Positions 1,623 through 4,001 of a DNA stretch of 64,000 nucleotides are shown in pieces. Numbering within the stretch: the stretch's first letter is position 1; each line of letters begins with the position of its first letter. The notes beneath the pieces were generated by a model. The model was not told the DNA's origin. It saw only the letters and a list, made by a program, of their open reading frames with translations, and did not search any database. Both the position numbers and the translations under genes were made by a program. The stretch comes from Tenuifilaceae bacterium (GTDB lineage Bacteria; Bacteroidota; Bacteroidia; Bacteroidales; Tenuifilaceae), in assembly GCA_034003245.1 (NCBI GenBank), contig JAVEYY010000021.1:5852-69851 (forward strand), written 5' to 3'.

Positions 1623-4001
1623 ATGAGAGTTCTAAATAAGTTAAGCATTAATCATAGAATCCAACTAGCTGTTGGGCTGATATTGCTTTTCCTATATGCC
1701 GTATCGGGTTACGTAGTATACTCATTCTCGGCAAGTAGAATGGAGAAACAGATCCATCGTCAGATGGAGGTTTACCTCGGCAACCTCTCTGGATTAATCA
1801 ACGAGGTGGAGAAACAGGGTGCCCCTGGATTTGACCCCAGAGACCACCAAACACTTAAGCCATACTTCAGCAAGCCTGCCTTTTTTAGCACCGATTACCC
1901 ATTTATGGCCGATGCTGCTGGACACTATACTATCCATCTTTACAAAGAAGGGCAACGAATCCCAAGGTATCTGCTGAACCAACTCTTTGCGCAATCGGAA
2001 AAGAGAGGATTCATCGAGTTTACCGAGAAATCAAACAATCAGGGTCAAAAGATCAAACTATTCTACCAAAAAGTTGATATTTACAACTCCTTTATTGGCA
2101 TACCTGTTAACCTAAATGAGGCAGCAAAAGATCTGAACAGCAATCGGTTTGTTCTTATCCTTCTTGTGATTGTCGGCTCACTCTTTTTTATTTTTGTAAT
2201 TAACCTCACCCTTAAACCAACCCTTAAAACCATCGCGCTAATTGACGATGTGGTTAGCCAAATGGCCAAGGGCGAAGTCTCCTCAACCATCACATACCAA
2301 TCGAGCGATGAGGTTGGAAAAATCGTAAAATCGCTTAACGTTCTTATCGAAGGGCTGTCGAAAACAGCCGCCTTTGCTACCGAAATTGGTCACAATAACC
2401 TCGACACTGAATTTTCGACCCTTGGGCCAAACGACAAGTTGGGCAACGCCCTTCTCGACTTACGCAAAAACTTTAAACAATCGAAAGAGGAAGAGGACAA
2501 ACGGCAGGAGGAGGACAAGCAGCGCAACTGGACCAATTCGGGCCTAGCAACATTTGCCGATATTCTACGCCAGAATAACAATAATCTTCAACGTTTATCC
2601 GATACAGTAATACAAAATCTACTGAATTACCTCAACGCTAACCAGGGTGGGTTATTTATGCTGAACGAGGATGATGATACCAACCCTCAGCTTGAGTTGA
2701 TTTCTGCTTTTGCATACAACAGGAAAAAATTTATGCAGAAAACCATTCTCCTTGGCGAGGGATTGGTTGGAAACTGCGTAATTGAAAAGCAAACAATCTA
2801 CCTAAAAGAAATTCCAGATAATTACTTGCAGATAACCTCGGGACTTGGCGACGCCACACCAAGAGCACTGCTTATTACCCCGCTTAAACTTGAAGATAAA
2901 GTTTTTGGAGTAATCGAGATAGCCTCGTTTAATGAGTTTAAGCCTTTTGAGATTGATTTTATCGAAAAAATCGGTGAGAGCATTGCTTCAACACTATCGG
3001 CAGTAAAAAATAGCATTCGAACCTCACAACTCCTTGAACAATCGCAACAACAACGCGAGGAGATGGCCGCACAGGAAGAGGAGATGCGTCAGAACATGGA
3101 GGAGATGCAGGCAACTCAGGAGGAGATGGCTCGCAAAACCATTGAAATGGAGGGCATGTCGTCGGCTATTAACGAGGCCATGCTTTTTGCTGAACTTACT
3201 GAGAATGGCCACTTCCTAAATATCAACGCCAATATGCTCAACACCTTGGGCTATACCCGAGGGGAATTGGAGGATAAAACAATCCACAATTTCATCTACC
3301 CAACCGATGTGACGAGTTTTAACGACCTATGGCGATTGGTTAAAGGAGGCGAAACCCACAACGGAACAATCAAATGGATTAACCGAAACAACGAAGAGCT
3401 ATACTTGCTTAGCAGTATATCGCCAGCTTTTGATGAGGTTGGAGATATCTTCAAGATTTTCTTCCTTGGACAGGATATTACAGCATCGAAACAGATTGAA
3501 ATAAAAGCACAGGAGCAAGCCGAGGAGATTGAGCAAAACCTAATGGAGCTACAAGCAGAGCAAGAACTGGCGCAACAGCGTGACGAGGAGATTGCTGCCC
3601 TGCTAAAAGCGCTTGACGGAACGTGCCTAGTAACAGAGTTCGATCCTAGCGGAAAAATTTTGTATATCAACGCCAAAAACGAAGAGGTTCTGGGCAGTAA
3701 AAGAAATGAAATTGAGGGGAAAGTTCTCCACGAAATTGATTTTTCGGCAAAGAATAATCCACAAGCATTCAACGCCATGTGGTCTTCGCTTCTCGAAGGA
3801 GTATCACAACAGCGAGAGTTCTCACTAAAAGTAAAGAATCGCGAAGTTTGGATTTCGGAGCATTTTACTCCAATATTTGGCAAGGATGGTGAGGTTGTAA
3901 AAATCATCAACATTGGCATAGATATAAGCAGCGGCAAGGAAACTGAGATAAGGCTTCAGAAGCAAGTAGAGGAGTTAACCAAGCTGCTAAGGCAAAAATA
4001 G
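1623..4001 (+). CDS. Membrane sensor protein: 2 TM + extracytoplasmic domain + HAMP + GAF + Glu-rich coiled coil + 2 PAS; no recognisable output domain
   Basis: 792 aa. Hydrophobic segments [21 protein letters not shown] and [20 protein letters not shown]. HAMP-like [21 protein letters not shown]...[12 protein letters not shown]. GAF signature [25 protein letters not shown]...[8 protein letters not shown]. PAS-like blocks after residues ~520 and ~650. No HATPase, GGDEF, REC or MCP signalling domain seen. Confidence 0.75.
   Translation: [792 protein letters not shown]

Follow-up and report, generated by a model that had tools for sequence, protein, structure and literature searches.

The window, i.e. 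the whole stretch of 64,000 nt analysed here, corresponds to positions 5,852–69,851 of the forward strand of contig JAVEYY010000021.1 (assembly GCA_034003245.1) from a Tenuifilaceae bacterium, an uncultured member of the Bacteroidales, and contains the gene cluster detailed in Table 1. The cluster brings together two CheR-type proteins and a CheB methylesterase, two large GAF-containing sensors, a short TM-GAF protein, relatives of SiaB and SiaC, and a transporter. An earlier interpretation of this DNA, made from the letters alone (hereafter the sequence-only reading), had called the sensors non-MCP ones; Pfam and further searches revealed neither MCP/MCPsignal nor CheA or CheW in the 64 kb, and the two CheRs and the one CheB of the window are therefore without a conventional substrate nearby.

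Table 1 Genes and coil-related features of the cluster, with positions counted from the first letter of the window
Feature	Position	Strand	Domains or basis of assignment
CheR1, canonical CheR-type protein-glutamate O-methyltransferase	757..1596	+	Pfam CheR 1e-38, CheR_N
792-aa receptor-like sensor, no enzymatic output	1623..4001	+	Pfam: TM, periplasmic Cache-like, TM, HAMP, GAF, coil module, PAS, degenerate coil, PAS
Continuous helix linking GAF to PAS, aa 439–517 of the 792-aa sensor (predicted)	2937..3173	+	AlphaFold2, mean pLDDT 92
Coil module of the 792-aa sensor, aa 466–510	3018..3152	+	Coil HMM E=4.5e-20; contains segment 3054–3137
Degenerate second module copy between PAS1 and PAS2, aa 627–657, EE pairs mostly gone	3501..3593	+	Weak coil HMM match E=0.72, profile positions 16–44
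CheR2, divergent CheR paralogue	4023..4859	+	Pfam CheR 4.6e-27
CheB methylesterase, catalytic domain only, no receiver domain	4863..5423	+	Pfam CheB_methylest 1.2e-48
265-aa protein, two TM segments and GAF, without coil module	5436..6233	+	Pfam GAF_2; no coil HMM match
870-aa SiaA-like sensor phosphatase	6235..8847	+	Pfam: TM x2, GAF, coil module, PAS, PAS, PP2C (SpoIIE)
Coil module of the PP2C sensor, aa 312–355	7168..7299	+	Coil HMM E=5.6e-8
SiaB-family protein kinase	8886..9461	+	NCBIfam SiaB_fam_kinase 174.5 bits vs cut-off 85; Pfam DUF6272
SiaC-family regulatory phosphoprotein	9473..9856	+	Pfam SiaC 2.2e-42, 144 bits vs cut-off 24.5
TerB-ABC transporter fusion (ABC-2 type), with which the conserved cluster ends	9908..12997	+	Pfam TerB, ABC_tran, ABC2_membrane

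Both large sensors possess a Glu-rich segment, and translation confirmed the two peptides already picked out by the sequence-only reading: positions 3054–3137 (+ strand) encode aa 478–505 of the 792-aa sensor, and positions 7219–7290 translate to ENEEELRQNAEEMRATHEELEKSN, i.e. aa 329–352 of the 870-aa sensor. Their proposed location, in a heptad coil right after the GAF domain, also agrees with the Pfam boundaries of GAF_2 (aa 321–458 and 170–304, respectively), from which it follows that both segments begin 8–20 residues past that domain. Neither sensor has a Pfam match to HisKA, HATPase or REC, and the PP2C part of the 870-aa protein matches the NCBIfam model of SiaA at 1.1e-51, a score below the equivalog cut-off. 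The 265-aa GAF protein, as had been supposed, is without the motif and gives no match to the coil HMM; it does share with the two sensors a conserved EEEE-rich linker preceding the GAF domain, a linker that has neither heptad-spaced pairs nor the small residues found in the CheR consensus.

The sequence-only reading had described two short motifs. The motifs are real, but the actual feature is larger: the segments form the core of a discrete helical module of approximately 45 aa with heptad-spaced EE pairs, which is present in approximately 3,700 protein clusters. The pairs occupy positions 479/480, 486/487, 493/494 and 500/501 in the 792-aa sensor and Q325/E326, E332/E333, E339/E340 and E346/E347 in the PP2C sensor, thus giving four and three EE pairs, respectively, at an exact spacing of seven residues. 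The four pairs were reproduced in none of 5,000 shuffles (P<2e-4) and the three with a shuffle P of 8e-4; the heptad pattern is not a product of chance. Concerning the full EExxA(S/T) hexamer, it occurs once per protein (E493-E494-M-Q-A-T and E339-E340-M-R-A-T), the remaining pairs preceding AAQ, RQN and ARK. Two copies of EExxA[ST] were observed versus 0.59 expected in the approximately 19,000 coding residues of the window, composition-preserving shuffles yielded P values of 0.02–0.05 per protein or per coil, and a six-frame scan of the window found just these two in-frame copies and one more in a non-coding frame; the hexamer match on its own is thus weak evidence. The AlphaFold2 model predicts one unbroken helix that starts with the last helix of GAF and reaches the PAS domain (residues 140–218 of the query segment), and this modelled exit helix, continuous throughout, is counted here among the established features of the sensor. 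Foldseek matches of the model are GAF domains with long exit helices, such as those of PDE2A, PDE5 and PDE6.

The 18-aa block of the coil is the most conserved stretch of the GAF and coil region, its entropy among 56 homologues being 0.37 bits, compared with 1.42 bits for the GAF domain and 2.75 bits for the region following the coil. It is near-invariant across 939 homologues—overall identity to the query being 49–63% in all but two of the 120 homologues listed—as well as across 518 module copies from 149 diverse proteins. The conservation of the EE-x-x-A-T register, which the sequence-only reading had left to an alignment of homologues, has thus been checked, the register being preserved in the orthologues of both sensors; 12 orthologues of the PP2C sensor preserve NEEELRQNAEEMRAT(Q/H)EELE.SN. 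In the 518 copies, the central pairs are occupied by E in 95–97%; substitutions in the outer pairs are mainly to Asp at the first residue and most often to Gln (16% and 8.5%) at the second. The latter may be seen as a mild echo of the Gln-encoded sites of MCPs. An E/Q polymorphism was also considered as the signature of deamidation sites; it is seen in the outer pairs, yet together with K, A and D elsewhere in other sets of sequences, and was retained as a mild hint only. It should be pointed out that R489, Q490, N491, A497, T498 and Q499, none of them a methyl acceptor, are equally invariant as the glutamates, which makes a structural or partner-binding role of the module a serious rival to methylation.

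As the homologue search apparently yields only proteins shorter than approximately 1.75 times the query, and hence fragments, the architectures were taken from the loci and from a search of representatives. The 149 best-scoring representatives contain 2–9 module copies per protein, usually one before each PAS domain; the position of the degenerate copy in the 792-aa sensor agrees with this coil-PAS repeat architecture. Among 54 scanned paralogues of the 792-aa sensor, GAF was recognized in all 54, HAMP in 47, dCache_1 in 33 and an MCP-like PDC in 23, and an enzymatic output domain in none. HisKA was seen in only two of 49 distant module-bearing proteins, and 11 of 109 paralogues terminate at most 100 aa from the coil. 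None of the 149 best representatives has the RQN-type module fused directly to CheR or CheB, and the C-terminal xWxxF tether (the pentapeptide for CheR/CheB) is absent from 221 coil-bearing ORFs. In the loci found by the coil, a CheR gene lies within 10 kb in only 16 of 78, accompanied by CheB in 14; most paralogues bearing the module thus have no CheR/CheB within this distance.

The scan of loci was, for its part, seeded on CheB and is therefore blind to the coil. It found a coil-bearing sensor beside CheR/CheB, with a fixed gene order, in 46 of 46 loci of at least 6 kb, fully in line with the adjacency on which the sequence-only reading was built. The order CheR–sensor–CheR–CheB–TM-GAF–PP2C sensor–SiaB-like–SiaC–TerB/ABC is kept in every sufficiently long contig of this search, the gene for the 265-aa TM-GAF protein being always located between CheB and the PP2C sensor, and TerB-ABC—a possible output of the cluster—following 3' of SiaC wherever the contig extends beyond the latter. 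The 792-type sensor gene is positioned between the two cheR genes in most of these loci and is absent from approximately 13 of the sufficiently long ones; every locus long enough encodes the PP2C sensor together with its coil, also where the first sensor is missing. CheA and CheW were seen upstream of the cluster only in the Marinilabiliaceae, where a complete MCP-CheA-CheW-CheR-CheD-CheB operon directly precedes the same cluster. The latter nevertheless retains its own CheR1/CheR2/CheB, which implies a separate substrate. Literature searches returned no paper specific to this operon of Bacteroidota or to the module family.

With regard to the enzymes, CheR1 contains both the CheR_N and the CheR SAM-binding domains with all SAM-binding motifs; the alignment with CheR from B. 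subtilis (5FTW) shows CSTGQEVYS, ASDL and CRNVIIYF to be preserved, and the SAM motifs are conserved in 49 orthologues. CheR2 also has the CheR domains, but with AAFDSGEE and ASTIS in place of CSTGxE and A(S/T)D; in 79 orthologues, another residue, mostly Ser or Thr, takes the place of the conserved Asp at the end of strand beta-2. The catalytic residues of CheB—Ser (GGSAGS), His (LHRLKH) and Asp (NKDGA)—align with those of 3SFT and 1CHD, and the triad is invariant in nine orthologues. The N-terminal receiver domain, which in chemotaxis-type regulation connects CheB with CheA, is absent, the protein of 186 aa consisting of the catalytic domain only.

The coil had been called MCP-like, a description that holds in part: one heptad per protein fits EExxA(S/T), yet homology to MCPsignal or to any MCP of solved structure is not detectable. 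For the Tsr methylation sites 297, 304 and 311, the consensus is EExxA(S/T), with the second Glu usually being the methylated one (PMC1079850). The seven-residue spacing of the EE pairs equals that of the Tsr sites, dCache_1 or an MCP-like PDC is followed by HAMP in the N-terminal halves of the paralogues, as in chemoreceptors, and CheR and CheB are the enzymes associated with the coil-bearing sensors. The wider consensus of MCPs has small residues flanking the site on both sides, a pattern of which the coil shows only half. MCPsignal (PF00015) was detected neither in the two sensors nor in the isolated coils (E up to 10) nor in the 54 paralogues, and homology of the coil to MCPs was discarded as a candidate, the profile search of the PDB giving only designed or viral coiled coils and no MCP. 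The coil also differs from MCPs by having no hairpin, no CheA/CheW and no pentapeptide tether; the adaptation region of MCPs, known from solved structures, is an antiparallel four-helix bundle, whereas the coil is probably a parallel two-helix one.

The coil of EEL heptads in CheB/CheR fusion proteins, to which the sequence-only reading had drawn attention, does exist: in these proteins (KEGG 'two-component system, chemotaxis family, CheB/CheR fusion protein'), a Glu-Glu-Leu/Met heptad coil with EELxS(T/A)N follows CheB and CheR and directly precedes a PAS domain (PAS_10), being physically tied to the enzymes, which are encoded by separate genes in the Tenuifilaceae cluster. A resemblance exists between the sub-motif ATHEEMQTSQEEL and RATHEELEKSN in the PP2C sensor, although the repeat EELQSTN differs from the module consensus. 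An HMM of the fusion coil has its best matches exactly on the two coils of the window (PP2C coil, aa 324–351, iE 1.5e-4 vs iE 2.3e-3 for the 792 coil), with reversed sequences scoring much lower, and hhalign of the module against the fusion coil gave P=0.0015 at a probability of 17%. With such a probability, and with cross-HMM scores low though above the reversed control, a common origin of the two coils was not adopted, the link being weak. No characterization of the CheB/CheR fusions with the EEL coil was found in the literature.

Outside MCPs, the only studied case of sensor-helix methylation found in the literature searches is that of RsbK/RsbM from B. cereus. RsbK, a non-MCP sensor placed upstream of a PP2C partner switch, is methylated on its post-GAF helix by the CheR-type RsbM (PMC4574943). 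The likeness in domain layout and gene context consists in a non-MCP membrane sensor with HAMP, GAF and a long helix, an adjacent CheR-type gene (on both sides of the 792-aa sensor), and signalling by way of a PP2C phosphatase and a partner switch made of kinase and phosphoprotein. The RsbK sites, reportedly E439 and E446 according to what Chen et al. are said to have described in 2012 (Environ Microbiol 14:2788), lie seven residues apart. As for the differences, RsbK belongs to the hybrid histidine kinases and has a receiver, whereas the Tenuifilaceae sensors have PAS domains only or a fused PP2C; RsbM is an orphan without an esterase, in contrast to the two CheRs and one CheB here; and the partner switch is RsbW/RsbV/sigma-B in the former and SiaB/SiaC-like in the latter. 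A methylatable signalling helix is thus of a kind already known, the coil module being a candidate variant of it. Concerning SiaABCD from Pseudomonas aeruginosa, the SiaA-like PP2C sensor, the SiaB-family kinase and SiaC come in the same order, but a SiaD diguanylate cyclase is missing (none of the cluster's genes encodes GGDEF), SiaC being followed by TerB-ABC; moreover, the phosphatase carries GAF, coil and PAS-PAS here, and CheR and CheB are located within the operon.

A near-invariant helix of Glu pairs encoded in a strictly conserved CheR/CheR/CheB operon without a chemoreceptor is the most likely methylation target. It thus appears, from the context, that the coil glutamates of both sensors being the substrates of the CheR/CheB of the operon—as the sequence-only reading had proposed—is the best explanation, one to which somewhat more than even confidence may be given. 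The module would leave the GAF domain as one long helix, most likely forming a parallel two-helix coil in the sensor dimer, in which one core position of the heptad would be hydrophobic (L/M) and the other mostly polar (E, Q), with the Glu-Glu pairs falling, once per heptad, on the outward-facing b/c positions. The high conservation of these b/c positions, unlike in ordinary signalling helices, argues for recognition from outside the coil. The exposed pairs would be methylated by the CheR of the operon—CheR1 taken as certain, CheR2 as a possible targeting or degenerate paralogue—with the second Glu of each pair as the likely acceptor by analogy with MCPs, and the receiver-less CheB would demethylate them. 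Neutralization of charge may then alter the packing or stability of a marginally stable coil and thereby reset the strength with which the GAF and HAMP input reaches the PAS domains and the PP2C phosphatase. The latter, acting against the SiaB-like kinase, would set the phosphorylation state of the SiaC-like protein and, through it, the output, possibly the co-transcribed TerB-ABC transporter.

The most serious alternative, considered possible albeit rather doubtful, is that the module represents an unmethylated specialized signalling or linker helix, similar to the S-helix and serving as the N-terminal cap helix of PAS. Its invariance would then come from dimer packing, a conformational switch or a common partner—e.g. 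hetero-oligomerization of the output-less receptors with the PP2C sensor—and CheR/CheB would act elsewhere, their target being a different protein or a site such as the Glu-rich HAMP-GAF linker that the operon's three GAF proteins have in common. The equal invariance of R-Q-N and A-T-Q fits well with it, as do the recurrence of the module, usually before each PAS, the rarity of CheR/CheB near the paralogues, and the paralogues ending shortly after the coil, for which the coil itself could be an interaction surface; in PDE2, PDE5 and PDE6, the dimer axis is made up of such helices leaving the GAF domain. The same may be said of the conserved pre-GAF linker, present even in the coil-less 265-aa protein, although its lack of CheR-consensus small residues and of heptad-spaced pairs speaks against it. 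The S-helix shares with the module a length of approximately 40 residues between two signalling domains (here GAF-helix-PAS), polar core positions and acidic b/c positions, the last being a general trait of signalling helices (PMC1592074). It is, however, defined by a central ERT signature at heptad positions c, d and e (Anantharaman, Balaji and Aravind 2006; PMC1592074), which is absent here, E-M-R and then Q-N standing there in 92–96% of the 518 copies. In ordinary signalling helices, conservation at b/c is reported to be 4–5 times lower than at g, a, d and e (PMC1592074), whereas the b/c positions of the module are the most conserved, and the module can, in addition, repeat in tandem. A mere linker helix leaves unexplained both this top conservation at outward-facing residues instead of the core and the constant tie of a receptor-less CheR/CheR/CheB set to coil-bearing sensors.

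It is also conceivable, albeit unlikely, that CheR/CheB act on the coil of the PP2C (SiaA-like) sensor only, the 792-aa protein and the scattered paralogues retaining the module for another reason, such as pairing with the helix of the PP2C sensor. This would agree with the presence of the PP2C sensor in every sufficiently long CheB-seeded locus, including those lacking the first sensor, and with the preference of the fusion-coil HMM for the PP2C coil. The 792-type coil is, however, nearer the family consensus and at least as conserved, and its gene sits between the two cheR genes in most loci. MCP genes, too, are commonly scattered away from cheR and cheB, so that distance alone is compatible with action in trans. 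Finally, the idea that the motifs are chance matches in a Glu-rich low-complexity coiled coil with no specific function, which could appeal just to the modest hexamer statistics given above, is for practical purposes refuted by the conservation data, i.e. the near-invariance of the block in the 939 homologues and 518 copies, by the heptad pattern, and by the same position of the motif in two paralogous architectures and their orthologues.

Returning to methylation of both coils, a wider view may tentatively be offered, doubtful as it still is as a whole, of a CheA-less chemosensory-like pathway in non-flagellated Bacteroidota. In such a pathway, the output-less dCache/PDC-HAMP-GAF receptors, a large family of paralogues, would carry 1–9 copies of a mobile, methyl-accepting module replacing the signalling domain of MCPs, adaptation by reversible Glu methylation would be provided by a dedicated CheR/CheR/CheB set, and the receptors would feed a membrane-anchored SiaA-like PP2C sensor with the same module, acting through a SiaB/SiaC switch in the control of TerB-ABC; the evolutionary origin of the pathway would be reflected in the Marinilabiliaceae, in which the cluster is attached to a complete MCP-CheA operon.

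In textbooks, reversible methylation of glutamates by CheR/CheB is the memory device of chemotaxis in bacteria; to our knowledge, it has almost always been discussed as a property of MCPs. Should the module truly accept methyl groups, methylation-based adaptation would be a portable element that GAF/PAS sensors, PP2C phosphatases and kinases could take up in one or many copies, and a chemotaxis-style methylation switch would control a phosphatase/kinase partner switch rather than swimming. This would offer a reason why many non-motile Bacteroidota retain cheR and cheB, as well as a function for thousands of output-less proteins described as 'PAS domain S-box' or 'GAF domain-containing'.

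The coil module shared by the two sensors of the window—the 792-aa membrane sensor, in which Pfam recognizes no output domain, and the 870-aa SiaA-like sensor phosphatase (PP2C sensor)—is best explained as a methyl-accepting signalling helix, a reading towards which our analysis leans by somewhat better than even chances. The sequence-only reading had placed MCP-like EExxA(S/T) motifs in the coils immediately after the GAF domains of both proteins. This location is correct: judged by the Pfam boundaries, a few residues separate the GAF end from the start of either segment. The hexamer EExxA[ST] occurs once per protein, these being its only coding copies in a six-frame scan; with 2 observed against 0.59 expected in the ~19,000 coding residues of the window (P 0.02-0.05 in shuffles), it is, taken alone, unconvincing. 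The Glu-Glu pairs follow each other at a spacing of exactly 7 residues, with four pairs in the 792-aa protein (479/480, 486/487, 493/494 and 500/501) and three in the 870-aa protein (332/333, 339/340 and 346/347, preceded by Q325/E326). A chance origin of this larger heptad pattern is excluded by shuffling, 0 of 5,000 shuffles equalling it in the former (P<2e-4) and P being 8e-4 in the latter.

The GAF+coil segment, used as the query, matched 939 proteins; of the 120 matches listed, at least 112 keep EE[LM]RQN[LM]EE exactly, despite an identity to the query of 49-63% in all but two of them. The motif register is likewise conserved in an alignment of 56 sequences, where the coil columns E, R, Q, N and E never vary and the 18-residue coil block (entropy 0.37 bits, the GAF domain having 1.42 and the part downstream 2.75) is the most conserved of the region, and 12 orthologues of the PP2C sensor retain NEEELRQNAEEMRAT(Q/H)EELE.SN. 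The coil HMM matched the two window copies (E=4.5e-20 and 5.6e-8) and had zero matches in the 265-aa TM-GAF protein, which had rightly been described as lacking the motif. In the 792-aa sensor it also picked out a second, degenerate copy that lies between PAS1 and PAS2 and has lost most of its EE pairs; relatives possess 2-9 well-preserved copies.

Both sensor genes belong to a nine-gene array with intergenic gaps of 1-51 nt, its domains having been assigned by Pfam and NCBIfam. The Ser/His/Asp triad of CheB and the SAM motifs of CheR1 are intact. CheR2 is a conserved divergent paralogue (A(C/F)(V/D)SGEELYS and IIASSIS vs CSTGQEVYS and IFASDL in CheR1) without the Asp that normally follows strand beta-2, a SAM ribose contact; 79 CheR2 orthologues have another residue there, mostly Ser or Thr. 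CheR2 may be non-catalytic or bind SAM differently. The Glu/Lys-rich HAMP-GAF linker of the 792-aa sensor (family consensus KAxEEEEKRKxEDxKRxW), which the paralogues share and of which the coil-less TM-GAF protein has an echo, could instead be the acidic target or a site of interaction.

Positions of the array genes, their segments and other features in the window (nt; domain boundaries in aa)
Feature	Position	Strand	Details
CheR1	757-1596	+	
792-aa sensor	1623-4001	+	Pfam: HAMP 209-246, GAF 321-458, PAS ~519-621, PAS ~657-769
HAMP-GAF linker, 792-aa sensor	2475-2531		aa 285-303
Coil segment, 792-aa sensor	3054-3137	+	28 aa; aa 478-505 of ORF 1623-4001
Degenerate second coil copy	3501-3593		aa 627-657
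CheR2	4023-4859	+	
REC-less CheB	4863-5423	+	
TM-GAF protein	5436-6233	+	265 aa
Linker echo in TM-GAF protein	5700-5740		RKQEEEEEAKAKV
PP2C sensor	6235-8847	+	870 aa; Pfam: GAF 170-304, two PAS, C-terminal SpoIIE/PP2C phosphatase 668-869
Coil segment, PP2C sensor	7219-7290	+	ENEEELRQNAEEMRATHEELEKSN; aa 329-352 of ORF 6235-8847
SiaB-family kinase	8886-9461	+	
SiaC	9473-9856	+	
TerB-ABC transporter	9908-12997	+	
TPR + CHAT protein	19359-22202		947 aa
Three receptor-like/DUF4249 pairs	37760-51858	-	784-826 aa/286-322 aa

The 64 kb contain no MCP, CheA, CheW or CheY gene. Their remainder consists of housekeeping (rpsB, tsf, pyrH, frr, dxs, sdh/frd) and outer-membrane genes. A TPR and CHAT (caspase-like) protein is encoded between tsf and pyrH, within the otherwise housekeeping rpsB-tsf-pyrH-frr stretch. 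The tandem pairs combine CarboxypepD_reg/Plug TonB-dependent-receptor-like and DUF4249 proteins, the third receptor-like protein having no Plug match at E≤1e-5, with small OMP beta-barrel genes scattered among them.

In an AlphaFold2 model based on the 56-homologue alignment (mean pLDDT 92), the last GAF helix of the 792-aa protein runs on unbroken to the PAS, making a single helix of aa 439-517, and Foldseek matched GAF domains with long exit helices, e.g. PDE2A, PDE5 and PDE6. The monomer model and the sequence periodicity suggest a parallel dimeric coil; with the L/M stripe as d, the Glu pairs would fall on b/c, a being mostly polar (E, M/L, Q). As to the likeness to MCPs, the 7-residue spacing of their methylation sites (Tsr 297/304/311, with the consensus EExxA(S/T) and mostly the second Glu methylated; PMC1079850) is matched by both coils. 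Similarity to MCPsignal or solved MCPs was not detectable, nor was an xWxxF tether found. Compared with the classical S-helix, defined by its ERT signature and poorly conserved at b/c (PMC1592074), the module lacks ERT and has the b/c pairs as its most conserved feature. The closest experimentally studied relative, compared here by its description, is the Bacillus cereus sensor kinase RsbK (CHASE3-HAMP-GAF-S-helix-HK-REC), which the CheR-type RsbM methylates on the helix after GAF and which has a PP2C partner switch downstream of it (PMC4574943). The EEL-type repeats that the sequence-only reading ascribed to CheB/CheR fusions do exist: a probe made of such an EEL-heptad coil retrieved fragments named 'CheB/CheR fusion protein' by JGI, and two loci encode CheB_methylest, CheR, coil and PAS_10 in one direction. 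By profile, the two coil types resemble each other weakly (hhalign probability 17%); their cross-HMM median score is 7 vs -5.7 for reversed controls, and the best matches of the fusion-coil HMM lie exactly on the two window coils. Post-GAF helix methylation in a non-MCP sensor (RsbK/RsbM) and annotated CheB/CheR fusions are already known; no account of the Bacteroidota operon, the RQN-type module or its multi-copy architectures was found in the literature.

The coil is a mobile module. Its 45-residue profile, run against 1.84 billion representative proteins, matched 3,662 clusters at E≤1e-3, of which 1,688 reach E≤1e-10; the best 149 matches carry 2-9 copies per protein, spaced by ~165 residues (one before each PAS) or 42-70 residues (tandem coils). 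Among the 49 of these that were domain-scanned, GAF was present in 42, PAS in 44, PAS_10 in 7, SpoIIE in 5 and HisKA in 2, and no fusion to CheR or CheB was seen in this set. Among 518 distinct copies, Glu fills the two central pairs in 95-97%, and R-Q-N and Q34 persist in 92-96%; where the outer pairs vary, Gln is the commonest substitute for the second residue (16% and 8.5%) and Asp the main one for the first. Some representative proteins (P0241, P0251 and P0265) bear near-identical head-to-tail repeats with a period of 42-70 residues, suggesting recent internal duplication or concerted evolution.

The main competing explanation, a structural or partner-binding helix with CheR/CheB acting elsewhere, appears distinctly less probable; it draws on the invariance of R-Q-N and A-T-Q, on the recurrence of the module ahead of PAS domains and on the many paralogues without CheR/CheB nearby. 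When Bacteroidota genome contigs were scanned from the coil with 10-kb flanks, CheR lay within 10 kb in only 16 of the 78 loci, 14 of these also having CheB. In many of the remaining loci, 2-5 paralogues stand in tandem. The 54 paralogues that were domain-scanned have GAF (54), HAMP (47), dCache_1 (33) or MCP-like PDC (23), then 0-2 PAS, and none an enzymatic output domain, the scattered set resembling a chemoreceptor repertoire spread over the genome. Some paralogues (L047:8369-10660 and the last array members of L008, L017, L070 and L077) stop 15-50 residues past the coil. In this TM-dCache-HAMP-GAF-coil-stop layout the coil forms the C-terminal element, and it would itself have to be the output or an interaction surface. 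The reciprocal scan of metagenome contigs, seeded with CheB and blind to the coil, returned 80 loci: all 46 loci of at least 6 kb share one gene order and have a coil-bearing sensor next to CheR/CheB, and the 14 coil-less loci are contigs of ≤3.6 kb that end too early. The first sensor is absent in ~13 loci, the coil-bearing PP2C sensor being always present there; that the latter is the only substrate, a narrower variant of methylation, seems improbable.

In Marinilabiliaceae (L060:218-9465; also L031 and L055), the cluster (GAF-coil, CheR1, CheR2, CheB, PP2C, SiaB, SiaC, TerB-ABC) immediately follows, on its downstream side, a complete chemosensory operon comprising MCP, CheY-like REC, Hpt, CheA, two CheW, CheR, an HATPase_c protein, CheD and REC-CheB, and retains its own CheR1, CheR2 and CheB; the MCP has the ordinary sites AEEVSTS and IEEMVAN. 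This arrangement may mark the origin of the CheA-less version in the window.

If the module is indeed methyl-accepting, CheR1, partnered perhaps by CheR2 in a targeting or degenerate role, would methylate its outward-facing Glu pairs, and the REC-less CheB, being constitutively active, would demethylate them; methylation would adjust how signals pass from HAMP and GAF to PAS and the PP2C phosphatase, and thereby the SiaB/SiaC phosphorylation switch. The array lacks the diguanylate cyclase SiaD, and the TerB-ABC transporter (ABC-2 type, with N-terminal TerB) comes after SiaC wherever the contig reaches beyond it, so that the SiaC-like protein may control this co-transcribed transporter, which would be a plausible output.
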